Positions 42,472 through 59,100 of a stretch of DNA of 64,000 nucleotides are shown piece by piece (position 1 is the first letter of the stretch; the number at the start of each line of letters is the position of its first letter). Origin of the DNA: an uncultured Planctomycetaceae bacterium. Lineage in GTDB: Bacteria; Planctomycetota; Planctomycetia; Planctomycetales; Planctomycetaceae. A program made the position numbers and the translations under genes. Location: assembly GCA_963976765.1 (NCBI GenBank), contig CAXBME010000003.1, positions 372,001-436,000 on the forward strand, in the 5' to 3' direction. The notes beneath the pieces are model-generated. The model was not told the DNA's origin. It saw only the letters and a list, made by a program, of their open reading frames with translations, and ran no database searches.

Positions 42472-45400
42472 TCACTGCCGACGCTGGACCTGGGCGCCGA
42501 CGATCGATCGAAGCCGATTGACAGCCACATCGGCGTCACTCGGAACGGATTCCAGCACTGTTTCGCGAGGCAGATGGCGAGCGTCGGTCACTCGGCCTGA
42601 GCGACTTCTGATTCGCCACTGGCCATCAAAGAAACTCATCTCGTTACCAATGCCACCGGTGACCCATCTGCGAGGTGATGGTTCTCCGCCATGCAGACGG
42701 GACGCGAACGAGACGCCGTCGAGTTCGATGTCTGCGGGCACTGTGATGCCAGCCAGGTCACAGATCGTTGGAAACCAGTCGGCCATGTCAATCAGGTCGT
42801 CGGCGATTGTTCCGGCCGCGATCGTGTCGGGACGCCGTACGATGAGTGGGATGTGAGTACCGGCATCATTGAGGTCACGTTTACCGCCGGACACCGGGCC
42901 GGCCTGCGTCTGGCGAGTCGTGTTCACATCCGTGCCGTTGTCACCCATAAAAATCACATACGTTCGATCGGCGATGCCCAGTTCGTCCACCGTGGCGATG
43001 ATGCGGCCACAAAGAGCGTCCATGTAGTGAATCATTCGACCGAGGGTCGCCGGCTGGCCGCTCTGTCGTTCAGCGGGCGTGTCGACGATCGGCACATGTG
43101 GCAGCATCATGTTGTGGTGAATGTAGAATGGCCGGCCGGCATCGACGGCGGACTTCATCTGAGCGATCACGTAGTCTGCCAGCACGTCCGGTCCGAATCG
43201 CTCGGCGATGTCGTCGCGAATCCGACCGTCGTGGTTCAGGCACGGATTCCAGTAACGTGTCGTCTTCGCTCCCTGCCGCCAGATCTGCCAGACGCACCAG
43301 GAATCGAATCCGGCATCACGGCAGTGATCAGGATGAAACTCCAGAGCAGCGAGCTGCCACTTACCGGTGACCGATGTTGCATACCCAGCAGCACGCAGAA
43401 GCTGTGGAAACGTGGCAAATCGCTGGCGAAAGTCGACGGCCTGTTTCGTACCAACATGCACGGGCAGCACGTTGTAATAACCATGTCGTGAGGCATACGT
43501 CCCCGTGTAGAGACTCATGCGCGACGGCGTGCAAACCGGACTTGTATACGCCCGAGTGAACCGCATCCCGTTTGCCGCCAGTCGGTCCAGATGCGGCGTC
43601 TCGAAGTCCTGTCCGCCGTAACAACCCAGCGTTTCGTAGCCGAGGTCATCCGCGAACAGCAGCAGAATGTTGGGAGCGTCGGGACCAGCCTTCTGCACCG
43701 TCCAGGTTTGCGGAGACGGTTGTTGATCGACGCGGCTCGTCGTTTTTTCCGTTTCCGTTTTCGCTTTGTCGTCCGCTGGAAGGAACTGCACGGCATCCGC
43801 GATGACATAGCCATCGGTGTCTTTGTTGGAGATCTCGACGACAGCCTCTGTTCCAAACGCCCAGGTACCGATTGAATTGAAGCCGTCCTGACCGCTGTTC
43901 TTCTGATTGACTGTTACGGTCGTCACTTCACGACCGAAGCGAACGGTAATCGGTACGTTGGTGGCGCGGTTTGGATTCGGCGGCCAGCTCACGCGGACTT
44001 CGTAGTCCCCCGGCTTCGGAAGTGTAAACGCGTATCGAGCAATGCACTTGCCTTTCGCTTCGTTGTTGTCATGCACGTAGGTCGGGCCGACGCGCGGATG
44101 CGTCACGTTATTGAGTTGCCAGGGACCGGCCAGTTCGGCCTTGTCGTTATCAACAACAATGCCCGGCAGACTCTTTGGATCAACGCCTGCTGCACCGCCG
44201 CGTCCGCGATGACGAGGCGGGCCGGTGTATTCCAGAATCTGGCCGTCTTTCAGGAGTCGCTCGCGCAGCTTCTTATAGTCGATGTCCTGCACGTTGATGT
44301 CGGCTTCGATGGCCTGCGACGCAGCCGTTGCAGCGCTCTGGCCCAGCAGCATGAAAACCGGTTCCATGCGGATCGAGCCGAACGCGATGTGCGAAGACGA
44401 CAGAGCAACCGGGACCAGCAGATTGGTGCATTCATCGCGTTTCGGCGTGAGCGCCCGATACGAGATCGGGTATGGCTCGACGGGGATCTCGACGTTGCCT
44501 TCGTTGCGGACGGCGCCATCGACGACGGTCATCTGGCAGTGATGCGAGTCCATGTTGTACGACGCCAGCCCGACCGAATCCTCGGGCACTTCGCGACCCT
44601 GACAATTGTGTTGCGTCATCACATAGTCACTCACCATCCGCCGGCCTTCGCGAATGTAAAGCTGATGAGTCCAGCCGCTGGTGTCTGTGTACTCGTCGCG
44701 AGGCAGTCCCCACTTTCGGATTTCTGAACGATGCGGCTCGGGGATGCGATCGCTGTTGGCGAGAAACCACATGACGCCAATCTGATAATTCGCATGAGCC
44801 TGAAAGATGCGTTCCCGCTCACTCCAGCTCGCATTCGGCCAGTTATAGTTACCACCAACGAAGTCTATGAAATACGCGCCGCTGAACAGGTGATGGTTAT
44901 TAGTATCCAGGCTCCATTGGATCTTCGGGCTGGCCCCGGACTCGAACAACCGGGCCAGGAGTTCGTACTGCTCTTCTTCGTAAACCGTGGGTTTCGGAAA
45001 CGGCAGAGGATCATTCTTCGTCAGCCACATTCGGAAGCAGAACGCCTGGATCTTCTTGTCTCCGTCGCCGGGACTCCCGGGGCTGTCGTTCACTCGCGGC
45101 AGTAAACCGCTCGATGCATCGCCCTTCACGCGATACGGATCGATCTTCACCGGCCAGTTGTGTCCGCCCTGTCCGGGAGTGCGGATGCCGTTGTACGTTT
45201 CGTTGTAAACCAAGTTGGCTTCGCGTCCGGCGTGCCAGGAAACGCCAGCCCGAGCGAGCAGGTCGCCTTCGTAAGTCGCATCAATGAACTTTTTCGCGCG
45301 GACAGTCAGACCGTCTTCCATTGTGATCGACACGATCCGCGCCCCGTCCTTCTCGACGTTGTCTAGATGCGCGAGTTTGCGAACGATGACCTTTGTTGGT

Positions 45401-45795
45401 TCCAGGAGTTTCTCAAACGCCGCTTCTGCTTCGGACGGGCGAAAGCTGGCCTGCCCGATGATGTTGTAGAACTCGCGGGCAATCCCGCCGCACACTGACT
45501 TGTCTCCACCGTCAGTGTGACTCAGCCCGCCGGAACTCAGCCCTCCCAGGTGCTTTCCGAACTCCAGAAGCACGACTCGCTGTCCCATTCGATCCGCCTG
45601 AATCGCCGCGACGACTCCGGCACACGTTCCGCCGTAGATGCAGACATCCGTCTCGACAACGCGAGGTTCGACCTTCTCCGGCGGGTAGTAATACCGCAGT
45701 CCCGGAATGGCCGGTTCCGGAAGCGCTTCGGTCTGTGCCTGAAGCGTTGTGGAAATCAGCAGCACAACGGATAACGCCGAGACTGTTCGATTCAT
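42472..45795 (-). CDS. Fusion of FAD-dependent oxidoreductase (PF12831-like), golvesin/xanthan-lyase-type beta domain and sulfatase
   Basis: DVCIYGGTCAGVVAA, FIDATYEGDL, YIREGRRM, GSIRMEPVFM; GIVVDN..PG.YEV..NRATNVP..YVIADAVQF; PNILLLFADDLG, CTPSR, GKWQL, FMGDNG. Confidence 0.88.
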   Translation of the reverse strand: MNRTVSALSVVLLISTTLQAQTEALPEPAIPGLRYYYPPEKVEPRVVETDVCIYGGTCAGVVAAIQADRMGQRVVLLEFGKHLGGLSSGGLSHTDGGDKSVCGGIAREFYNIIGQASFRPSEAEAAFEKLLEPTKVIVRKLAHLDNVEKDGARIVSITMEDGLTVRAKKFIDATYEGDLLARAGVSWHAGREANLVYNETYNGIRTPGQGGHNWPVKIDPYRVKGDASSGLLPRVNDSPGSPGDGDKKIQAFCFRMWLTKNDPLPFPKPTVYEEEQYELLARLFESGASPKIQWSLDTNNHHLFSGAYFIDFVGGNYNWPNASWSERERIFQAHANYQIGVMWFLANSDRIPEPHRSEIRKWGLPRDEYTDTSGWTHQLYIREGRRMVSDYVMTQHNCQGREVPEDSVGLASYNMDSHHCQMTVVDGAVRNEGNVEIPVEPYPISYRALTPKRDECTNLLVPVALSSSHIAFGSIRMEPVFMLLGQSAATAASQAIEADINVQDIDYKKLRERLLKDGQILEYTGPPRHRGRGGAAGVDPKSLPGIVVDNDKAELAGPWQLNNVTHPRVGPTYVHDNNEAKGKCIARYAFTLPKPGDYEVRVSWPPNPNRATNVPITVRFGREVTTVTVNQKNSGQDGFNSIGTWAFGTEAVVEISNKDTDGYVIADAVQFLPADDKAKTETEKTTSRVDQQPSPQTWTVQKAGPDAPNILLLFADDLGYETLGCYGGQDFETPHLDRLAANGMRFTRAYTSPVCTPSRMSLYTGTYASRHGYYNVLPVHVGTKQAVDFRQRFATFPQLLRAAGYATSVTGKWQLAALEFHPDHCRDAGFDSWCVWQIWRQGAKTTRYWNPCLNHDGRIRDDIAERFGPDVLADYVIAQMKSAVDAGRPFYIHHNMMLPHVPIVDTPAERQSGQPATLGRMIHYMDALCGRIIATVDELGIADRTYVIFMGDNGTDVNTTRQTQAGPVSGGKRDLNDAGTHIPLIVRRPDTIAAGTIADDLIDMADWFPTICDLAGITVPADIELDGVSFASRLHGGEPSPRRWVTGGIGNEMSFFDGQWRIRSRSGRVTDARHLPRETVLESVPSDADVAVNRLRSIVGAQVQRRQ

Positions 45796-45859
45796 TGTTT
45801 TCGCCTGTGGCTTTTTGCTGCGAGCAGAACGGGCTCTCTTGAACGCGGGACAGAACTTC

Positions 45860-47134
45860 TCAGCGTCCGTAGGTCGGGAAGATGGCCGGGGTTGGGAAGC
45901 GGTCTTCGTGGGTGACGCTCGAATCTTTCAGGTATTCCTCGCGCGGGATGTGTAGGTCGGGCCAGTTTGCTGGGCGGAGTCGGACGATTCTTCCGGGACG
46001 AATGCCCTCTGTGATGAGGTCCGTTTCGAAGTGGATTTGGATTCCGCTGCTCCCCAGAGGAGCCTCTCCATCTGTTTTCGTGACAGCCAGAATCGGACCT
46101 TTTGAGGCCATCTGGGCGGTGCCTGCAGTCCCACCGGCCCAATGCTTCAACGTGTTCTCAGATTGTGCCAGCAGAGCCCGGCTCCCTTTCTTAAAGTCGG
46201 CGTAGAGTGATTCGTCCATACCGCCGAACAGAGTCACTTTCACCTTCGCATTGCCGAACTTGCCATACTCAACGGAATCGACCCAGCCGGGCATCCAGCG
46301 ACTGCGGATGAAAGCCTTGTGCGTTTCAGTCTGGTTGCGGACGGCACGCCGCATGGCACCGTCGTCCATCCAGATATCCGAGATGTGGAATCGTGTGAAG
46401 ACACCGCCTGGCGTGGGCTTCCAGGTAATTCCAAGCAGGACGACCTGGCCATCGAGGGATTTCTTTCCATCGACGGGCCAGATGCCTTCGGTGATCAGAT
46501 CCTGGACAGCCAGATACTCGCGACCGCGCCAGATTCGTGTCGCCGCATCGAAAGTCATCGCTTCTTCGTGGGCCTTGCCGGCTCCGCCTGCCTTCCGTTC
46601 GCGACTCGCGATGATCATCCCCTGGTTGTTAGTGACTTCGACTTCTTTCAGCTTCCAGACTTTGCCCGTGCGCAGGCAGTAGCTGGGTTCGTCTTCGAGC
46701 AGGAGGACGTGGTTCTCGGCGGGGGCTGATCCGGTGCCGGCGTTGCCCGACTTCTTTTTTCGGTTGTCGACTGGCAACACAGGCACGGCGGAGATTTTCG
46801 GATCCGGCGGCAGAAAGGCCCGAACGTGCAGCATCGTGCCCAGCGGGATATCCCGGAGATCTGCCGGTGCACCGTGATACCGGACGATCCCGTAGGGAAG
46901 CATCGCGAAGGGAGACGGACTGGTGAATCGAAACTTGCCCTCGGTTTGTATGCGGACGCTGCCGCGACGATTGGCATGATCCACGAACACCAGTTCGCCC
47001 CGATAGGAATGGGAACTTTCCAGAGGATGAAACTTGCCTGTCTCGGGACGGAACGGCTCGTCGTCGGCAGTTGCAAACAGAGACATGCCGACGTGCAACG
47101 CAGCGACACAGAGGGCGATCTTGAACTGTGTCAT
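45860..47134 (-). CDS. Exported protein of unknown function, paralog 3 of 3
   Basis: Signal peptide; shares [42 protein letters not shown] and RFPTPAIFP with both neighbours. Confidence 0.9.
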   Translation of the reverse strand: MTQFKIALCVAALHVGMSLFATADDEPFRPETGKFHPLESSHSYRGELVFVDHANRRGSVRIQTEGKFRFTSPSPFAMLPYGIVRYHGAPADLRDIPLGTMLHVRAFLPPDPKISAVPVLPVDNRKKKSGNAGTGSAPAENHVLLLEDEPSYCLRTGKVWKLKEVEVTNNQGMIIASRERKAGGAGKAHEEAMTFDAATRIWRGREYLAVQDLITEGIWPVDGKKSLDGQVVLLGITWKPTPGGVFTRFHISDIWMDDGAMRRAVRNQTETHKAFIRSRWMPGWVDSVEYGKFGNAKVKVTLFGGMDESLYADFKKGSRALLAQSENTLKHWAGGTAGTAQMASKGPILAVTKTDGEAPLGSSGIQIHFETDLITEGIRPGRIVRLRPANWPDLHIPREEYLKDSSVTHEDRFPTPAIFPTYGR

Positions 47135-47166
47135 AGGCGGGCAATTACAACGACGTGGGATGTACG

Positions 47167-47272
47167 AAATGATTAATGATTACTGGAAAATGAAAACTGC
47201 AAAAGTTGGGAAGATATGGGCTGCCGAGTTTCCACTCTGCATTTTTCATTCTCCATTACTCATTAATCATTC
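47167..47272. repeat. Heptamer-periodic inverted repeat (empty copy)
   Basis: AAATGAT TAATGAT TACTGGA AAATGAA AACTGCA versus reverse complement of 47238-47272, GAATGAT TAATGAG TAATGGA GAATGAA AAATGCA (30/35 by hand count). Confidence 0.9.
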
Positions 47273-47330
47273 TCGAAAGTGTCTCCACCGAATTCCATAG
47301 ACAGCATTGGTTACCAATCTGACTACCCGA

Positions 47331-48602
47331 TCAGTACTTCGGAAAGATGGCCGGCGTCGGGAAGCGCTCTTCAATGGCGGATGTTCCGAGATACTCCTCA
47401 CGCGGCACGTTGACCTGAGGCCAGTTGGCGGGGCGGACACGAACGACTCGGCCAGGGCGGATGCCTTCGATGATCAGGTCGGTTCTAAAACGGATCTGAA
47501 TGCCGCTGCTTCCAGAAGGCACTTCGCCGTCCGTCCTGAGAACATCGACGATAGGACCTTTACAGGCCATGTGTGCGGGACCGTACGCGCCGTGACCGTG
47601 CTTCAGCGTGTTCTCGACGGCGTTCATCAGACCAGAGGCACCCTTCTTGAAATCAGCGTACAGCGAGTCATCCATTCCGCCGAACAGAGTTGCGGTCACC
47701 GTTGCGTTGCCAAACTTGCCATACTCGATGGCATCGACCCAGGCAGGCATCCAGCGGCTGCGGATAAAGGCTTTGTGAGTTTCGGTCTGATTGCGCGCGG
47801 CACGCTTCATCGCCGTGTCGTCCAGCCAGATGTCCGAGATGTGGAACCGTGTGAACACGCCATCTGGCGTGGGCTTCCAGGCGATTCCCAGCAGGACGGC
47901 CTGGTCCTCTAGAGACTGCTTTCCGCTGACGGGCCAGATGCCCTCTTCGATCAAGTCCTCGACACCGAGACGCTCGCGGCCGCGCCAGATGCGTGTGGCG
48001 GCATCAAAGGTCAACGTTTCTTCGCTGGCTTTGTCTTCGCCTGACTTCCGTTCGAGCCTGGCGACAATCATTCCCTGGTTGTCGTTGATGTCTACTTCCT
48101 GCAGCTTCCAGACTTTGCCCTCGCGCTGGCAATGGCTGGGTTCGTCTTCGAGAAGCAGGACGTGGTTCTCGGCGGGTGCGATTCCTTTGCCGCTGTAGCC
48201 CGACGTTTTGTTCTTGTTTCCGACGGGCAGCACAGGCACGGTGGAGGTCTTTGGATCCGGCGGAAGAAAAGCCCGCACATGCAGGACCGTGCCCAGCGGG
48301 ATGTCTCGAAGATCCGCTGGAGCTCCGTGATAGCGAACCATGCCGTAAGGAAGCATGGCGAAGGGATGTGGTGCGTTACGGAAATACGTGCCCGCTCCCT
48401 GCACACGAAGACTGCCGCGACGGTTGGCATGATCCACAAACACCAGCTCGCCCCGGTAGGAGTGAGCCATTTCCACAGGTGGAAATGTTCCAGCCTCGGG
48501 ACGGAAGGGTTCGCCTTCATCTTCGGCGGTGGTGGTGCTCGCGAGCAGGGACACGCCGAGATAAAGGACGGCGACCCAGCAGGTAGATTTGAGATGTGTC
48601 AT
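47331..48602 (-). CDS. Exported protein of unknown function, paralog 2 of 3
   Basis: Signal peptide and the same conserved blocks as its neighbours. Confidence 0.9.
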   Translation of the reverse strand: MTHLKSTCWVAVLYLGVSLLASTTTAEDEGEPFRPEAGTFPPVEMAHSYRGELVFVDHANRRGSLRVQGAGTYFRNAPHPFAMLPYGMVRYHGAPADLRDIPLGTVLHVRAFLPPDPKTSTVPVLPVGNKNKTSGYSGKGIAPAENHVLLLEDEPSHCQREGKVWKLQEVDINDNQGMIVARLERKSGEDKASEETLTFDAATRIWRGRERLGVEDLIEEGIWPVSGKQSLEDQAVLLGIAWKPTPDGVFTRFHISDIWLDDTAMKRAARNQTETHKAFIRSRWMPAWVDAIEYGKFGNATVTATLFGGMDDSLYADFKKGASGLMNAVENTLKHGHGAYGPAHMACKGPIVDVLRTDGEVPSGSSGIQIRFRTDLIIEGIRPGRVVRVRPANWPQVNVPREEYLGTSAIEERFPTPAIFPKY

Positions 48603-48619
48603 AGTCCGATTTCCCTGGA

Positions 48620-49990
48620 TCAGTATTTCGGGAAGATGGCCGGGGTTGGGAATCGGTCCTCGGGGCTGTTGTTGAAGAGGTATTCTTCCCGGGGAATCTG
48701 CATCTTCGGCCAGCTTTCCGGGCGGACGCGAACGACTCTTCCAGGGCGAATGCCTTCGATGATCAGGTCGGTCTCAAACTGGATTCGGATACCGCTGCTG
48801 CCGAGCGGGATTTCTCCGGCTGCCCTGGTGACGTCAAGGATCCTGCCATTGGAAGCCACGTGGGAGGGGCCGTAGTGGCCGGCTGCGTGCTTCAAGGTAT
48901 TCTCGGCTCCATTGATCTGTGCGCCGACGTCTTTCTGGAAGTCGTTGTAGAGCGAGTCATCCATGCCGCCGAACAGAGTCGCGGTGACTGTCGCGTGGCC
49001 GAACTTGCCATACTCAACGGCATCCACCGCAGCCGGCATCCACCGACTGCGGATAAAAGTCTTGTGTGTCTCGGTCTGAAAATAGGCTGCGTTCTGGATG
49101 GCGTCGTCGTCCAGCCAGATGTCCGAAATGTGGAATTGAGTAAAAGCGCCACTCAACCCATCCCCTGGTGCAGGCTTCCAGGTGATTCCGAGCAGGACGG
49201 CCTGTCCACCGAGGTCTTTCCTGCCGCCGGTGGGCCATACTTTTTCGGCGACCAGGTCAGCAATTCTAATTCGCTCTCGCCCGCGCCAAATGCGGGTGCC
49301 GGCGTCGAAGGTCAGCTCTTCTTCCGTGGAGTTGCCGTCTCCACCCGCCTTCGGTTCGCGACTGGCGGTGATCTTCCCGGCATTGTTCCTGACCTCCACT
49401 TCCTGCAGCTTCCAGACCAGTCCGTTGTCCAGGCAGTGACTGGGCTCGTCTTCAAAGAGCAGCACGTGGTTTTCGGCCGGTGCCGTACCTGTTCCACGAT
49501 AATGTCCGGCGTCTTTCTCCTTGTTGTTGACCGGCAAGACAGGCACCGCGGAAATCTTCGGGTCCGGCGGAAGAAAGGCCCGGACGTGCATCACGGTGCC
49601 GAGCGGGATGTCGCGCAGATCCGCCGGAGCGCCGTGATACCGGATCACACCGTAGGGAAGCATGGTGAAGGGTTGAGGGTCGTTTCGGTAAAACTTTCCC
49701 GTCCCTGCCACACGGATGCTGCCGCGGCGGTTGGCATGGTCCACGAATACAAGTTCGCCCCGGTATGAGTGTGCCTTTTCAACAGGCGGAAACTTTCCCG
49801 CCTCGGGACGAAACGGTACTTCACCGGCGGTTACGTCCGATGCAGGCAGCAAGAGTCCCAGACAAACCGCCACGAGCCATAGCGACATTCTGGAAACCCG
49901 ACGCGTTAGTGAGGGACGAGCCTCACCGATGACACCAGACTCGCATCCCTCGCTCATGCTTCGAGTTACCTTGTGAAGCAGCAGTTTCAT
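48620..49990 (-). CDS. Exported protein of unknown function, paralog 1 of 3 (N-terminus extended by a palindrome)
   Basis: Same conserved blocks; its ATG overlaps the DUF1552 stop (ATGA). Confidence 0.9.
49892..49970. repeat. REP-like palindrome pair inside coding sequence
   Basis: GGAAACCCGACGCGTTAGTGAGGGA (49892-49916) versus reverse complement of 49946-49970, GGTAACTCGAAGCATGAGCGAGGGA (19/25). Confidence 0.7.
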
Positions 49991-51342
49991 AGTTCGATCA
50001 CCGTGTTGCTGTCGCCAAATCGATCGGTCTCCACACCCATGCGCTGAGCCATCAGGACCAGCAGATTGCTCATGTGGGCGTCCGTGTTTACGGGGCGACT
50101 ACAGAGACGGTAATGGTCGCCGGGCTTGTCGAGCGTGTAACCGTCGAAGTGCCCCTGGTTGAAGTCGAGATGGCTGCCGTGCTTCAGACCAAGGTCTGAA
50201 CCGCCAGCGAGTACCAGCGGGAGGTTGGCGTTACCGTGGCTGTGGCCGTAGGACATACCGCTGCCGAAGAGCGCCATCGTTGACCCAAGCAGCGGCCTGC
50301 CATTGACGTCCTTCGTCTCGTCCAGCCGCGAGAGGAAGTAGCTGAACTGCTCGATGGCAAAGGTGTCGTAGTTGGTGAGCTTTTCCATATAGCCTTCATC
50401 GCCGCCGTGATGGCTGAGCTGGTGGCGCGACTCGGTGATGCCGATTTCGGGAATGGCGAAGGCGTCTCCTTCGCCACCCAGGCTGAACGTGGCCACACGC
50501 GTCACATCCGTCTGAAAGGCGAGCACCATGAGGTCGTAGACTGTGCGGAAATACTCGCCCGCCTGAGTCCTTGGAATATCACGGTTGGTGCGTTTGCGAT
50601 CGGCGTCGGAGATGTCAGGCAGCGGTGTGTCGAGCCAGGCATCGGCGCGTCGCGTGCGAATCTCCGCCTCACGAACTGAGGTGAGGTATTGATCAAGGCG
50701 TCCTTTGTCGGCCGCCCCAATCTTCTGCTCAAGCCGCCGCACTTCAGCGAGGTTGTCATCAAGGACGCTGGCCTTGCGGCGCAAAGCTCTGCGCTGGGCC
50801 GCGATGCCACCTTTGGGCTCCTCGAACAGCGACGCAAAGATCTCGCTGCAACGACGCATCGCGGGCAGCTGAACGCCATCCGCGGTCCAGGCGAGGGAAC
50901 CCTGCGTCAGCGCAATCTCCATGGATGGGTAGCGAGTGTGCTGAGCCGTGACTGCGGCCATCTTCTGGTCCACGGAGATCGTGTTGCGTGCCGAAGGGCC
51001 GATCTTTCCACCGGTCAACCAGATGTTGATGCAGTTGTGATGATGGCCAAGCCCTCCCGGATGATGCAGACCGCTGACAGGCGTGATGACCTGCCGGTGC
51101 TTCTCCAAAGGCTTAAGCGACTGGGAAAACTCATAGTCTTTACCCGGTCTGGTGATCTGATAGTTCAACGAGTGAACGCCGTTCGCGAGATAGATAAAGG
51201 CACTGCGCCGAGGCGATTCGGTTTGCTCTGCCGCGTTGAGCGGGATCATGCATTCCAGCATGGGCAGGGAGATGCAGGTCCCCATCGCGCGAAGGGCGTG
51301 GCGACGATCGATCAGCCACGACTGGGTTTGAATATTGCTCAT
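49987..51342 (-). CDS. DUF1552 (HXXSHH) domain protein
   Basis: [58 protein letters not shown]...NLPLVLAGG. Confidence 0.92.
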
Positions 51343-51386
51343 GGATTTTGTCCTTCGGGTAAGTGACCGTGTTTGTGGCCAGCGAG

Positions 51387-51431
51387 GAAGAGAATGACTA
51401 ATGAGTAGTGGAGATTGGAGAATGCAGAATG
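51387..51431. repeat. Heptamer-periodic repeat, copy C (inverted relative to A and B)
   Basis: GAAGA GAATGAC TAATGAG TAGTGGA GATTGGA GAATGCA GAATG. Confidence 0.88.
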
Positions 51432-51504
51432 TCAGGTCCTTGTCACGTCATACGTTACCAGACACGCCGCGTTGAGTTCTTTCGCATTTGTTCCCCAATA
51501 CTCA

Positions 51505-51906
51505 TTAATCATTCTCTTCTCTCCTCGTGTAATGCTGTGATTGATTTGATTTCGCCGTTACGAGGGATTTGGCGATGATTTTGCAGAGCTGATCACACTC
51601 GTCCCGAAGCTGCTCGAGCCGTTGTTCCGGGATCAGGTCCGATTTCACAATCAGTCGTATCCACACATGGCTTTCGCGAAGTTCCTTCAATGCGATCGCG
51701 AGCTTGTGGATAAAGTCTTTCTTGCTTTCCGCCGCACAGGCTTCGGCATAATTGGGAGCCGGGGAAGTTCCTGACCGTACGAGCTGCCCAGCAATGTGTC
51801 TTGCAAGCCGAGTGTCTGGCAGTGCATCGACTGCTTTTCCAACCCGAACAGCAAACTCCAGCAGCCGTTCTTCAATGTCTGCTCCTTTCCTCCCTTCATT
51901 TTGCAT
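51505..51906 (-). CDS. Four-helix-bundle protein (23S rRNA intervening-sequence protein family)
   Basis: IEERLLEFA.RV, QLVRSGTS..PNYAEA..AESKKDFIHKL.IALKELRES..W. Confidence 0.93.
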   Translation of the reverse strand: MQNEGRKGADIEERLLEFAVRVGKAVDALPDTRLARHIAGQLVRSGTSPAPNYAEACAAESKKDFIHKLAIALKELRESHVWIRLIVKSDLIPEQRLEQLRDECDQLCKIIAKSLVTAKSNQSQHYTRREEND

Positions 51907-51936
51907 TTTCCAATCTCAGTTACTCAATAATCATTC
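51897..51936. repeat. Heptamer-periodic repeat, copy A (contains the four-helix-bundle start codon)
   Basis: Reverse complement GAATGAT TATTGAG TAACTGA GATTGGA AAATGCA AAATG; 33/40 to copy C. Confidence 0.88.
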
Positions 51937-51950
51937 CTTCGCGCAGCAAG

Positions 51951-54425
51951 TCAGCGTTTCCTCATCAGATTGGACATCGCCACTGTGCGCACAATGTCTT
52001 TGACCCGGTATTCGTTCTTCTTTGCTGCGTCGACAATCGCCTGGACCTCGTCACGATCATCGATCGTCAGCACGCGACGGAGCGCGTAGGTGCAGAGGTG
52101 TTCGATGAACGCTCGCGCGACTTTGTCGCGATCCTCAAGCAGGAGCCGTTTGAATTGAACGGAATCGGTGAATGGACGGCCGTCGGGCATGATGCCGGAA
52201 GCGTCAACCAGTGGATCTTCACCGACGCCTGTTTCTACCCGCTCACGGGTTCGCCACTGGCCGATGGCGTCGTACTGGTCAAACGCCAGCCCTAATGGAT
52301 CAATTGTGCGATGACAGGCAGCGCAACTTGCGTTACTGGCGTGTGCTTCAATTCTCTGACGAATCGTGATCTTCGTTCCCGTTGGTGGAATGGGCTCGAT
52401 CGGTTCCACATTGGCCGGTGGTGGTGGCGGTGTCCTGTTGAAGATCGCTTCGCTGAGCCAGACACCGCGATGCACCGGGCGGTGGCGTGTTCCATCTGAC
52501 GTCAACCCGAGCACGGCCCCCATCGTCAGTAGCCCGCCGCGATGATCTTCAGGCCGCAGCGCGACGCGGTGGAAGTCGCCCGTTTTCGGCTCCGGCAATC
52601 CGTAGAAATCACAGAGCCGGGCGTTGGCCATGGTCCAGTCGGAATCGAGGAAGCCCTCGATGGGCAGATCCTTCGCAAGCATCTCGCGGAAGTACTCAAC
52701 CGGCTCAGCCCGCATACTCGCCTCCAGCCAGTCGTCGTAGCCGGGGTAAAGTTTTTTGTCCGGCGGGAACATGCCCACGCGGTGCAGTTGCAGCCATTGC
52801 CGCGAGAAATCGTCGATGAAGCGGTTGATGCGGCTATCGGACAACATCCGATCGACTTCTTTCTTCAGGTCCTCACCCTTCAAAGCTCCACTTCTGGCCG
52901 CCGTGAAAAGCGCGTCGTCGGGCATCGAACTCCAGAGGAAATACGAGAGCCGCGAGGCGAGTTCCCAGTCGGTGAGCCGTTCGCGGGCTTCGGGTTCGCC
53001 CTCGACGAGGTAGATGAAGTTTCTGGACGTCAGCACGTTCTGTAACGCGATCCGATAAGCATCGGTGGCCTTCTCACCCGCCTCGAGTTCGGCGCGGTAA
53101 GTTTCCAGATAGTCCTCCAGCTCTTCCTTCTTCACAGGCCGCCGCCAGGCGCGTTCGGCAAAGCGGTGCAGGCGTTCGGCGACTACTTCGGACGTCGCAC
53201 CGTCAGGCGGCAACGCCGCATTTTGCCGAGCCTTTTCCGCTTCCGACACCAGCGGCCCTTCCCATTCGATCCAATCGAGAAGCACCGTCGAAAAGATGCC
53301 GTTCCCCTCGCCGTCGAACATCTGCGGAGCGTTGGGGTTTAAGAGCACGGTCTCGCTGCTGTGCGTAAAAATATACCCACTGCTGGCGATCGCATTGCGG
53401 AAGGCAGCTCCGCCCCGTCTGTCCACGCCGTCTGTGGCGACGACGCAAAAGTGCAGGTCGATCGGCATCTCCAGAAACACTTCGAACTCATACACCTGCG
53501 GACTGTCTTCGGGCGCCGTGATGTCGAATTCGATGAGGCCATCAACGGTTTCCTCACTGGTCTGCTTGCCGATGCTCAGGTGGGCCGGCTGGCCGCCGGG
53601 CGGACGAATCCCGCTGGCCTGAAGTCGAAGTTTGTAAAGTCCGCTGTGTTCCGGCCCCGACCTTCCAAACCAGTTCGGCTGAAGCGCCGACTGAACTCGC
53701 CCCGGAAAGTGGAGGTAACGCAGTGGCCGCTTAATGCCAAACCGGTTCAGTGCCTCCTGCTCGCTTTTCCCACCGCGGTAACGCAACTCGGCGGCTGTCT
53801 TTCGAACTTTGCGAGCCTCGCCGGACGTCACTGGGAAAGCACGATCGAGCACAATGTCGGCCGCTCGGTAGTAGCGGTCCACATGCGATGGCGAGAGCGA
53901 AAGCTGCGACCCGATCCGTTCATACCCGTGCCAGAGCGTGTCCTCATTCAGCTCCCCCGGTTTGGCCGGATCGTAGCGCACGCCAAGCAGGTCGTAGACC
54001 GTGTTCTGATATTCTTTCCGACTCAGGCGATAATGCGCCACCGCCGGCCGCGCCGACATCCGTGCTGCCCGTCCTTCTCGAATTCGCCCGTCGAGCTGAT
54101 CGACGACCGCTGCGATCTCGTCGATCGTCGGCTGAGGTTCATCTTCCGGCGGCATCTCGCCGGAATTGATCCGTTCCACGATCTCGGCCCAGAGATGCCC
54201 GTCGATTCCGGTTTTGAAATCGCGTGACAGCTGATCGATTCGCAGTTCACGCTCAACCTTCTCAGGTCCGTGACAACGCACGCAATGCTTCGTCAGAAAC
54301 GCCTCAAACGGTTCAACCGCTGAAACAGCGTCGACAGCAATGACGTTGATCAAACACCAGACAGCCACACCGGGCGCGATAATTCGTACGAGGTCAGTTC
54401 GTGTCATCAAAGGTTCGACTTTCAT
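51951..54425 (-). CDS. DUF1592/DUF1588/DUF1595/DUF1587/DUF1585 protein with heme-c motifs
   Basis: [76 protein letters not shown]. Confidence 0.94.
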
Positions 54426-54429
54426 GGTC

Positions 54430-55518
54430 TCAATCTAAGGCATTGACATTTTCATACACAGCGAAGGCAGTGTCCCAGCTCACATCTTCTTTTGGAGCGG
54501 TGAACACGGTGTCCCACTTCACTCCGTCTTCGCTCCGTTTGATGTCGTAGCGGCGGCGTTCGACGTTGATGATGGTTCCACTATTGCCTTCGACGAACCG
54601 GCCACCGGGAGTTCCTTTCGGGAGATCCTCCCAGGTAATGCCGTCTTTGCTTCTGCGGCCGTGACTGCCTTTCTGAGCGGTCAGCCAGAACTCACCGCGG
54701 ACGAAACTCAGACCTCGCCACGACTTGCCCCAGCCTTTGAGTCCAGTTTCGTGCAGCGTCCAGGTGACTCCACCATCGTCTGATCGAGCAACGTACGTCT
54801 TATAGCTGACCAGGAAGACTCCGTTACCGTACACGATGACTTCCTGGCCTGGACCGGCTTCTTCCGGAATTCGGCTGTGCTTCCAGGTCTGGCAGTTGTC
54901 GTCGCTGTAGAAAACGTGCTGGTTATCTCCGACGACGAGGAAGCGTCCGCCTTTGTAATCGCCAAAGCCGCTGATCATGTGATGCGTCTTACCACCGTCG
55001 AGCAGTGACTTCACACTGTGAGCATTCCATCCGGAGAACGCTTCGCTCGAACTGGTCATGCCTCGCCACTGATCGGCACTTGTCAGCAGGATGCCGTTGC
55101 CTCCGGCTGCTCCCCAGACACTGCCGAGATTCGACGGCTCCTTATTCAAGTGCGTCCAGTGCTCGCCGTCGTCCGAGCCAATGTAAACGCCGGGTGTCCC
55201 CCAGCCAGAGAAAACTCCAATTACTCCTTTCGTCGCAGCCATGCCATAGACCGCGAACGTCCCGTGCCAGCCGCCGTCTTCGAGCGACTCCGTGCCGAGA
55301 AACGTCTGCTTCCACGTCCGGCCATCATCGCGGGAGACCAGAATCCGCATCCCCTGTTTGGAACACACCGCAAATACCGGCTCTTCGCTGCGGGGAGTAA
55401 GCGGCGTTCCATACGGGATGTCCGCACGGATCGGAGCGTGCTTCTTCTGCGCGTGAGTCGCCGTGGCGCTGGCCAGAATTAAGAAGGCCAACAGGCCGCG
55501 TTGCAGAAGATTCGTCAT
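54430..55518 (-). CDS. Exported BNR/Asp-box repeat beta-propeller protein
   Basis: Signal peptide from ATG 55518; repeats [45 protein letters not shown]. Confidence 0.85.
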
Positions 55519-56122
55519 CGATCGTTCTCTTTCAGACAGGATGGTTTCCAGGCTCCACCATTGTCTGGTGTACTGCAGCTGTTCGACCAGCGTGACGCCG
55601 TCGCCGAGTCGCGTTCGCAGGGAGTTTCGGAACTTTTGAGCCCTTGAGGGTAACTTCATCGTCGGAACTACCATAGTGATGCAGTGACTGCACGTCGAAA
55701 TATTGACGACTCGCCGCTTGAGCAGGCAATCCAACGCACACCTGAATACGAAACTGTCACCTTCGAAATCGCGGCATGCCAATTCGAGACGCTGTTGCGA
55801 ACGTGGCTCGCGGGCATGTTCCACAGGGAATCGACGTTGACGAAGCAGCTTTGGAAGATCCGGCAGAAAAATCATCAATGCGTGAGAATGTCCGGGACAG
55901 TGGCACGACCGCTGCAGACGCTGCGGTTCCGTACGATGACCGTCGCGATTAACCTGTCTGACCTGGGCGATGACGACGGTGTGACCGCCGATGATTTTTT
56001 CCATGATGTCCTCGACGAAAGCGATGTCGTTGATCCTGTTTTCGTTGCTGGATTGCCGGCAACCCCGTAACAGACTCCTCAAGAGTTTCGCTACGGTCGC
56101 TGAATCCAAGTGAGTTGCTTCA

Positions 56123-59100
56123 ATGCTGCGCCGCACCTTTCTCATGACGCTTCTGCTGACCAGCTCGTCCGTGGTCGCCGCGAATGACTCGCCGGACACC
56201 GAGCACGTCAAATTTTTCGAGATGCATGTGCGGCCGCTGTTGGCTCGACATTGTCTTGAGTGCCACAGTGCCGGGAAGCAGAAGGGCATGCTGCGGCTCG
56301 ACTCGCGGGCGGCCATGATCACGGGCGGCGAATCGGAAGAATCCGCAATTGTCCCTGGCAAACCCGATGAAAGTCTCCTGATCTCTGCCGTGAGGTATGA
56401 GTCCTATGAAATGCCGCCGAAAGGAAAGCTGCCTGCGAAAGATATTGCCGTTCTGGTCAAGTGGATTGAACTCGGCGCTCCCTGGCCCGGAGGTGACAAC
56501 TCGCTGATTGTTCGACAGGACGGCGACCTCATCACCGATGAAGATCGCGCGTGGTGGGCCGTTCAACCGGTCACCGAGCCTGAAGTACCGCAGGTCGGCG
56601 ACGGCTGGGCGCGAAACGAAGTCGATCGCTTCGTCGCAGGAAAGCTGGTCGAAGCGGGACTCGAACCGGCGCGTGAAGCCGATCGATACGAACTCGTAAG
56701 ACGAGCTTATTTCGATCTGCACGGTCTACCGCCGACTCTGGAGCAAATCGACGCTTTTGTAAAAGACGATCGTCCAGATGCGTGGCAGCGATTGATAAAA
56801 CAACTGCTGGCGAGTCCGCGATATGGCGAACGCTGGGCTCAGCACTGGCTCGACGTCGTCCGGTATGCCGAGAGCGATGGCTATCGCGAAGACAGATTCC
56901 GTCCGGATGCCAGAGCATTCCGCGATTATGTCATCCGGTCATTGAACAATGACAAGCCCTACGACCAGTTCGTCCGCGAACATCTGGCAGGCGACGAGAT
57001 CGATCCGGATGACCCGGATGTCTTCATCGGCACAGCTTATCTGCGTCACGGGATCTACGAATGGAATCAGCGAGACACGCGGATGCACTGGGATCTGATC
57101 ACTCATGAAATGACACGTGTGACCGGCGAAGTGTTTCTGGGCATCGGTATCGGGTGTGCTCAGTGCCACGACCACAAGTTTGATCCGATTCTACAAAAGG
57201 ATTACTTCGCTCTGCAGGCGTTTCTGTCCTCGGTGGCCTGGCCGATCGATCGACCGCTGGCGACTGCCGAGCAGATCGCGGCGTATCAAAAGAAACAACA
57301 GAAATGGGAAGAAGCAACTCAGGCGATTCGGAATGAAATCGACAGCCTGGTCGAAAAGGCAATCGAGACCAGAGAGCGAAACCTCGTCAAACAGTTCCCG
57401 GAAGACATTCAGAAGATCTATGACAAACCCGATTCGGAAAAGTCGACCCTGGAAAAGCAGTTGTCCTATCTGGTGTGGCGTCAGGCTCTTCGTGAGAAGG
57501 AGAGTTTGAATCGAGCCAAATCGCTTGAGAATTCGCCCGAGAAACTGAAGCGATACGAAGAGCTTCAGGCCGCTCTGAAGAAGTTCGATTCGATCAAACC
57601 GGTTCCGCTTCCGACGGCGTTTATTGCAACCGACACAGGCACTGAACCTGCGGAAACATTTCTGCGAACGCGCACAACAACGGAACGGGTCGAGCCCGCG
57701 TTTCTGACGCTGCTCAACAATGGTCCTCCAGAGATCACTCCGACCGCTTCAACCACCGGTCGCCGAACGGCGCTGGCAAACTGGATCGTCCGGGATGACA
57801 ACCCGCTTTCGACACGAGTGATCGTCAACCGGATCTGGCAAAGGCACTTCGGTCGCGGCATCGTCGCGACTCCGAACGACTTCGGAAGACTGGGAGAACC
57901 GCCGAGCCACCCCGAGTTGCTGGACTGGTTGACGCGACGGTTTCTCGAGTCGGGGTGGAAGCTGAAACCGCTGCACGAGCTGATCATGAACAGCGCCACG
58001 TATCAACAAACGGCGTGGCGTGAACCGGGCAACAACATCGACCCCACCAACCGCCTGCTGTGGCGATTCCCCCCACAGCGGCTGGATGCCGAGCAGTTGC
58101 GCGATGCGATGCTCGCTGTGTCAGGCGAGCTGAAACATCGCAGCGGCGGCCCGTCAGTCAGTGGCTCAGCTCCGTATCGAAGTGTTTACGTCATCCGGAA
58201 GCGAAACGATCCGGACGAGATGCTGTGCGGGTTTGATGCCCCGCTGCGTTTTGACTCCGCCCCCGATCGAATTGCGACGACGACTCCCGTTCAGTCGCTG
58301 TTGCTGGTCAATGGTGACTGGACACTGGACCGCGCTCGAACATTCGCACGACGCCTGCTGGGGGAGAAAGAGGAACTGACCGCAGACGAGATCCGCACAG
58401 CGTGGCAACTGGTCTTCGGTCGCGAAGCTACTGACGACGAAGTCGCTGATGCACTGGCGTTTCTCCGTCTGCAATCAGAGGCCATTGAAGTGTCGACTGA
58501 CGATACAGGACTCCGACCGGTGATCGAGCATTTTGCAGCGGTCAAAGACTTCGGACTTGGCACGAAGGCGTTGAGGATTCAACCGGGCAGTCGCTTCGAA
58601 CGATTGCATGTGAAAAACGCAGATGGTTTCGACGACCAGTTCACCTTTGAAGCGGTCACGGTTCTCGATCGCGTTTATCCCGATGCCACTGCCAACACGC
58701 TGATCTCACGCTGGAACGGCAACCTCACAACCAGCGGCTGGAAGATCTGCGTGACCAGCGAGAAATCGGCCTACCAGCCACGCAACTTCGTCGTGGCTCT
58801 GGTGGGACGCACAAGTCAGGGAGACTCGAAATACGAAGTCGTCGCATCTGGTCTGCGATATCCGCTGCACAAACCCGTTTATCTTGCAGCCGTGATTTCT
58901 GCAGCTCCAACAAATGACAATCCCGCTGCAGGATCGGTGACGTTCTATATGAAGGATTTATCCGATCCGAATTCCGAGCTGCAGATTTCGCAGGTCGCGA
59001 CGTCCATCATTGGGCACATTCAGAACCCGGCAATGAAGATCATCGCTGGCGGTCGAGATTCAAGCTCGCATCTCTGGGATGGCCAGTTCGCCCGTGTGAC

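Follow-up and report, generated by a model that had tools for sequence, protein, structure and literature searches.

Organization of the locus

The window analyzed here, a 64,000-nucleotide stretch of DNA from an uncultured Planctomycetaceae bacterium, carries on its minus strand an operon in which an 824-aa gene of the DUF1592/DUF1588/PSCyt type (51951..54425) lies upstream of a 451-aa DUF1552 gene (49987..51342). Between these two flanking genes, and outside any rRNA gene, is a small cassette made of a 133-aa four-helix-bundle gene (51505..51906, minus strand) and three copies, or arms, of a degenerate repeat, all given here on the minus strand. The left arm, A (51897..51936), starts 14 nt past the DUF1592 stop codon, consists of five xAWTGxx heptads and the start of a sixth, and contains the ATG of the gene. 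The right arm, C (51387..51431), is inverted relative to the other two, and its end is 44 nt from the DUF1552 ATG. Arm B (51492..51519) is a shorter second copy of the left arm in the A orientation, which in the window allele contains the stop codon; the loop between B and C (51432..51491) is similar to the loops of a three-arm allele from genome G114 (L223) and of a gene-less hairpin from genome G002 (L005). A and B are direct repeats (15/16 match), while A and C form terminal inverted repeats, as in an insertion sequence or a MITE.

The first-pass annotation of this DNA had described a gene wrapped in 7-nt-periodic repeats, with A matching C at 33/40 and B matching C at 20/21. Both matches are correct on re-reading of the sequence: the A:C pairing of 33/40 joins 51897-51936 with 51392-51431, and over 28 nt the B:C pairing (51492-51519 with 51387-51414) is 89%. 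The 7-nt periodicity holds in all three arms, whose lag-7 self-match beats 10,000 shuffles (p=0.0016 for A, p=0.039 for B and p=0.0001 for C), and that annotation was right about the ATG in A, the TAA in B of the window allele and the operon junctions, which measure 4, -4, 17 and 64 bp. Its three arms are real, but two further ones had been missed, D (47233..47274, minus strand) and E (47166..47205, minus strand), which make up the left and right arms of a solo hairpin, built from this repeat but enclosing no gene. The hairpin (47166-47274) occupies another junction of the operon, 196 bp long, where the second of a set of unnamed paralogs gives way to the third. Three such paralogs of 424-456 aa lie in tandem at 45860-49990, with no Pfam match in the two that were scanned, and there are one to three copies among relatives. 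A promoter and terminator scan of 51200-52100 found none, and an Rfam scan of 45000-56500 returned only two miRNA-like hairpin matches, both sub-threshold.

The four-helix-bundle protein

The 133-aa protein scores 66.7 bits against PF05635 (cut-off 33.8, E 2.5e-18) and 94.8 bits against TIGR02436 (cut-off 24), which bears out the four-helix-bundle family identity proposed for it earlier. A structure model built from the single sequence was weak (pLDDT 53), and an alignment-based model with a pLDDT of 91.5 was used instead. The best Foldseek match of this model is PDB 2RLD (E 2.9e-6, TM 0.74-0.90), followed by 2GSC. Both of these structures contain five chains, and an S23-type protein of Xanthomonas is described as a pentamer in the accessible text of PMC4990558; by analogy, we infer that the window protein forms a homopentameric ring. 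Avd, the accessory protein of diversity-generating retroelements (DGRs), is a far weaker structural neighbour (PDB 4DWL, TM 0.64-0.75, E 0.1), and the window protein has about 12% identity to it and does not match the Avd models NF033474 or PF22296. It matches four-helix-bundle models only, with no REP-associated tyrosine transposase, and a PADLOC search gave a single weak match, with an E of 0.023. The searches revealed neither a catalytic function nor an enzyme that might act as its partner.

Heptamer arms accompany the gene family

The earlier proposal that such repeats should co-occur with four-helix-bundle genes holds in a sample of 108 distinct family loci with enough flank, weighted to the window clade and Planctomycetes: inverted arms bracket the gene at 88/108 loci, compared with 0/91 control window pairs taken from the same loci. 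Self-matches at lag 7 are present upstream in 74/108 and downstream in 77/108 loci, those at lag 8 in 9 and 8, respectively, and the left arm contains more G than C in 84/88. The arm type tracks the protein clade, not the site, mean arm 4-mer cosine being 0.70 between loci at >75% protein identity and 0.11 at <30% (80 loci). Taken together, these comparisons indicate that gene and arm type travel together, although arm-gene co-inheritance is also expected from plain linkage.

One could object that simple repeats and REP-like hairpins simply gather in intergenic gaps, with the gene an unlinked passenger. The window genome does contain 54 lag-7 tracts, diverse in their units, for a single intact family gene, and REP-like palindromes sit in the same junction in other alleles. 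Such chance company is nevertheless very improbable given the contrast between armed loci and controls, the preference for lag 7 over lag 8, the dependence of arm type on protein clade and the conservation of arm bases far beyond neutral sites.

The arms of the window type are strikingly local. A weight matrix built from the arms of relatives finds only five arms in the 8.57-Mb genome, all in the window operon, which answers the call of the first-pass annotation for a genome-wide repeat search; in five related genomes, 15/18 pattern matches lie inside the same operon, and G002 accounts for the remaining 3, which share a single location elsewhere. Among the 54 lag-7 tracts of the window genome, 19 have an inverted partner less than 1.5 kb away, and the comparison lags 5, 8, 10 and 11 give 7-16 tracts with 0-3 inverted partners; many of the lag-7 tracts may be relics of lost cassettes. 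The genome has one intact PF05635 gene only. A second four-helix-bundle gene, at G000:C39:10833-11143 (about 1300-1700 of locus L022), is broken into two pieces in different frames with one stop, and is bracketed by inverted arrays whose heptamer is G-rich and differs from that of the window arms. Elsewhere (G000:C31:92363-93050), two heptamer tracts in inverted orientation, separated by about 650 bp, enclose the gene of a histidine-rich, exported-looking protein, which may be another kind of cargo or may be bracketed by chance.

The unit and its variants

Among the 80 loci listed, 21/22 relatives at >=79% identity (at least 79%) are located before the same DUF1552 gene, and most of them are two-armed, with the order A, gene, C. 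Three-arm alleles like that of the window are L063 and L223, and extra hairpins occur in L061, L070 and L076. The ATG is in arm A in 14/16 alleles and the stop codon is in the repeat in 4/16, all of them B-bearing (16/18 alleles could be parsed by pattern). The claim that the repeats supply both start and stop codons is thus upheld for the start codon, and the stop codon in the repeat is rejected as a design feature, since it is restricted to three-arm alleles. Because most alleles are two-armed and the stop is in the repeat only where B is present, the unit is arm A, gene and arm C, with B, which is missing from two-arm alleles, as a secondary copy.

B could have arisen as a local copy of an arm; in the five multi-arm alleles it is closer to C in 2 and to A in 3. 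A deletion between A and B would then produce a solo hairpin. The G002 junction, in which the A flank is followed by a loop like the B-C loop of the window and then by C (loop similarity p=0.013, shuffle test), has the layout expected of the remnant of such a deletion, with the reverse path possible as well. About 1390-1500 nt past the DUF1552 start, two pairs of loci (L203/L228 and L223/L289) carry window-type hairpins in which the right arm comes first and the left arm second, an order that would be expected where two copies meet in tandem or where a circle has closed.

The DUF1592-DUF1552 junction in relatives

To compare filled and empty sites, 181 loci with both flanking genes were reduced to 135 alleles and then to 125, a set without the window and without those alleles to which the gene itself was the sole route; junction classes were assigned by reading the sequences, not blind. 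In 82/125 junctions there is neither the gene nor a recognised heptamer arm, some of these having REP-like palindromes, and 80/82 such junctions are 130 bp or shorter. The window clade is intact in 9/125 and present as relics in another 9/125 (3 decayed copies, 3 solo hairpins and 3 tips). A further 9/125 junctions are filled by genes of three other clades, with a different heptamer for each clade (one of these genes is frameshifted), and solo or half arms of an other-clade type are found in 8/125. The remaining occupants are RAYT-like (REP-transposase) genes, scoring below the model cut-off, in 3/125 (L211, L224 and L234) and unrelated genes in 5/125. The empty-site comparison proposed by the first-pass annotation therefore identifies the cassette as an insert, and a fixed operon gene is rejected; the cassette-free orthologous junctions equally bear out the idea of an insert that lacks a transposase.

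The four-helix-bundle genes found in this junction do not form one clade (AU test, p=1.6e-36, with 23 of 88 rows), which argues for separate entries. On the DUF1552 tree (131 rows), the 28 window-type alleles need 20 state changes, compared with 25.8 when shuffled and with 0/300 shuffles as low: window-type alleles are clustered and yet very patchy. The junction that follows DUF1552 houses yet another four-helix-bundle clade, the fifth, whose heptamer arms are again of a separate type (L069, L074, L247, L253 and L262), as well as an IS200-like gene in L072, named from reading its sequence, and a decayed copy in L226.

Could the cassette serve the host? A ring that binds heptad hairpins at the junctions of its own operon might set downstream processing or translation, being kept where useful and replaced by interchangeable versions. 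Consistent with such a role, the arms are confined to the junctions of the window operon, and the gene, as described below, has a very low dN/dS and a long residence. The right arm of several other-clade alleles directly adjoins the start codon of the next gene, like the TAACTGA repeats of Beggiatoaceae (PMC4679880, main text). In these alleles (L166, L193, L188, L242, L271 and L282) the right arm reaches the start codon of DUF1552, a Shine-Dalgarno-like word is not evident before it, and pairing of the arms could mask the initiation region. Against a service to the host speak the prevalence of cassette-less junctions and their shortness, the fact that in other alleles the same slot is occupied by REP-transposase genes, by a toxin-antitoxin pair or by unrelated enzymes, and the commonness of decayed or interrupted copies (L120, L209, L213, L226, L188 and the G023 insertion). 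On balance, we regard a regulator kept for the host as decidedly unlikely. In G023, the window-clade gene is interrupted by an insertion at an assembly break, with arms A and C on separate contigs (L310, G023:C210, and L024, G023:C36).

Age, loss and probable exchange of cassettes

In 16 alleles, synonymous divergence is equal in the gene and both flanks (mean pS 0.69), and the median dN/dS of the gene, 0.038, compares with 0.049 and 0.075 in the flanks, values that indicate strong purifying selection on the cassette gene. Well-supported clades agree between the gene and flank trees, but none of the three alignments accepts a tree other than its own, and this holds even between the two flanks; the operon is therefore mosaic regardless of the cassette. 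Because the gene is as diverged as its flanks and the trees mutually reject each other, the cassette is best described as an old resident of a mosaic operon. Free genome-wide transposition of the window clade is rejected, its divergence being that of its neighbours and 21/22 relatives being in the same junction.

Losses have left traces at the nucleotide level. In relic L253 the outer units of A and C are fused, in L248 and L256 the upstream stop codon is fused to the tail of C, and in L209 and L213 it is fused into the gene, the join in every case being at a short matching word. These relics, as read from their sequences, show the cassette to be lost by deletion between short matching words, which would generate the solo hairpins, half arms and tips, and the distribution of clades described above likewise shows the junction to be refilled, as far as can be judged from sequence, by genes of other clades that come with heptamers of their own.

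Evidence for recent swaps comes from three pairs of alleles, one of which consists of two metagenome contigs that are possibly chimeric. L173 and L195 are near-isogenic (DUF1552 identical at 1242/1251, with only 5 differences in the 300 bp upstream) and differ by a whole cassette, one having a 40-bp half arm and the other a 573-bp cassette of another type. In this single pair, which belongs to another clade than that of the window, the cassette fills the stop-to-start gap with no target-site duplication; for the window allele itself, the closest empty sister is only 85.5% identical. L242 differs from L248 by 21.7% in the 120 nt next to the junction and by 1% further up, with about 130 nt of divergent upstream flank, and in L059/L208 the pS is 0.18 in the gene and 0.50 and 0.47 in the flanks. 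The three pairs suggest exchange through flanking homology. Divergence near the junction exceeds that farther away in same-state pairs (10.6% vs 6.6%, 17 pairs) as well as in different-state pairs (17.6% vs 7.4%, 8 pairs), and is thus not specific to the latter; a general co-conversion tract beside the junction was rejected, as there is one clear pair only.

RNA stem or DNA arms

The first-pass annotation had raised the possibility of an mRNA-level intervening sequence (IVS) and of a choice between a long A:C stem and a local B:C hairpin. When the whole junction is folded with ViennaRNA, A:C prevails over B:C (summed pair probability 36.9 vs 0.08), in line with duplex energies of -51.0 and -45.7 kcal/mol, and the 641-nt region overall folds at z=-1.84 only. 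The long stem is therefore the favoured fold, but the A:C/B:C choice, being available to three-arm alleles only, is not part of the design of the element.

The link of the protein family to 23S rRNA intervening sequences is real. In the 23S IVS of Coxiella burnetii (helix 45, S23p), heptamer repeats precede the S23p start and RNase III cuts in the first repeat, while the excised RNA decays rapidly and the ORF, according to the authors, is in decay and unlikely to be expressed (PMC4990558, accessible text). A cassette that works through its A:C stem in mRNA would be released by RNase III as a gene-bearing RNA, which the ring would bind and protect and which a reverse transcriptase acting in trans would turn into new insertions, in the manner of Avd in DGRs. 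The favoured fold and the same layout and cut in Coxiella agree with such a scheme, as do the RNA binding of Avd and its structural neighbourhood (weak as the E of 0.1 is), the concerted change of the arms, and the near confinement of solo hairpins to the same operon (5/5 arms in the window genome, 15/18 in relatives), which a cis-acting RNA route predicts.

Selection for a stem in mRNA predicts that, on the sense strand, G-U mismatches exceed A-C mismatches. Among mismatches in 80 stems there are 84 G-U and 88 A-C, and in 15 loci of the window clade 22 G-U and 16 A-C, both counts being made without a positive control; the near equality gives no support for an mRNA-only stem. Further points against the mRNA scheme are that no reverse transcriptase family is among the 7 window proteins scanned, that the gains and losses that can be traced are events of DNA recombination or deletion, and that the excised Coxiella RNA is short-lived. 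The mRNA-level idea is thus weakened, and we consider it unlikely, if less so than a role for the host.

The arms themselves have features of DNA-element ends, which likewise present the same array facing inward on both sides. The median ungapped stem is 34 nt (quartiles 28-38.5, in 80/88 armed loci), a length that hinges on alignment thresholds, and arms with three to six or more units exist. Within the heptad, conservation reaches 91-100% at positions 2, 4 and 5 of either arm and 71-87% at the other positions (15 loci; 3/18 were dropped for register problems). Since these positions are conserved while synonymous sites are near saturation, their conservation points to sequence recognition, beyond pairing alone. 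Variants of arm A are matched in their own C in 21/55 cases compared with 7.4 expected, several of them among kin, and this sharing would fit selection for pairing as well.

A cassette that probably reads its own arms

The reading that we prefer, to which we assign a probability of roughly 0.5, is that A, gene and C constitute one gap-filling cassette whose protein, likely a ring of five subunits, reads its own arms at about one 7-base unit per subunit. A ring reading about five heptads would fit because the median stem is 34 nt and the solved relatives have five chains. The TRAP protein, a ring that wraps periodic RNA, provides an analogy for the predicted ring. Homologous recombination in the flanking genes would carry cassettes from one allele of a junction to another, and entry into a new junction would involve ring-bound arms and a host enzyme; a cassette would persist by inheritance and allele exchange and decay by slippage. 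In the mRNA, the stem would be cut by RNase III as it is in rRNA IVSs, and tolerance of a cut between genes may explain where cassettes survive, not necessarily how they move. The cassette would thus probably be mobile and recognise itself, much like the rRNA "intervening sequences".

The likeness to the Coxiella 23S IVS comprises the protein family, terminal inverted repeats that enclose the ORF, heptamers just before the ATG and the lack of a transposase. The window cassette, however, lies between protein genes, has a stem of about 40 bp instead of 28 bp, and contains an ORF that appears to be under strong purifying selection, unlike the decaying ORF of Coxiella; its type also has solo and multi-arm derivatives and is replaced by other clades, unlike what the accessible text of PMC4990558 describes. 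With REP/REPIN-RAYT systems, as far as PMC5581495 and bioRxiv 10.1101/2022.05.22.493013 describe them in their accessible parts, it shares a single-copy, conserved, long-resident gene in inverted repeats as well as gene-less hairpins, and RAYT-like genes compete for the same junction. It differs from them in having no tyrosine-transposase domain, arms that are 7-periodic arrays and not short palindromes, and few solo copies, nearly all in the same operon and not dispersed over the genome. Its predicted four-helix-bundle fold is similar to that of DGR Avd, which forms a pentameric barrel resembling S23 proteins and binds RNA next to its own gene (bioRxiv 10.1101/2023.10.23.563531, accessible part); the Avd-model, identity and neighbour scans described above set it apart from Avd. 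The TAACTGA heptamer repeats of Beggiatoaceae, for which a regulatory role has been suggested, are likewise patchy, intergenic tandem arrays of 7-nt units, often just before a start codon; unlike them, the window arrays consist of degenerate units, stand in inverted orientation and go together with a gene (PMC4679880, main text). That main text contains no mention of four helix, intervening, 23S, S23 or PF05635, while its supplements may list repeat-adjacent genes. The cassette fails the defining features of rRNA IVS, DGR and REPtron alike. Within partial literature coverage that excluded supplements, no published description of such a cassette outside 23S rRNA was found, and in the accessible part of PMC5524665 such genes appear only as table entries.

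More tentatively, PF05635 genes with heptamer arms could represent a large undescribed class of self-recognising mobile elements, in which a pentamer recognises five units through a code particular to its clade, earmarks the hairpin it came with so that a host enzyme copies it into nearby junctions, and leaves heptamer arrays scattered in many bacteria. The 23S IVS would be a special case of this class and the DGR Avd a domesticated offshoot. So wide a generalization is possible, though we would still bet against it.

Although structures have been solved for PF05635, this widespread family has no known function; the junction described here ties it to intergenic heptamer arrays, an old puzzle in their own right that has no known transfer mechanism (PMC4679880, main text). 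The junction is also a ready test set, with four protein clades and four arm types at one site, together with filled, solo, relic and empty alleles. If the ring reads its own repeat, the family would provide both a modular nucleic-acid reader and a mobile element that has no transposase.
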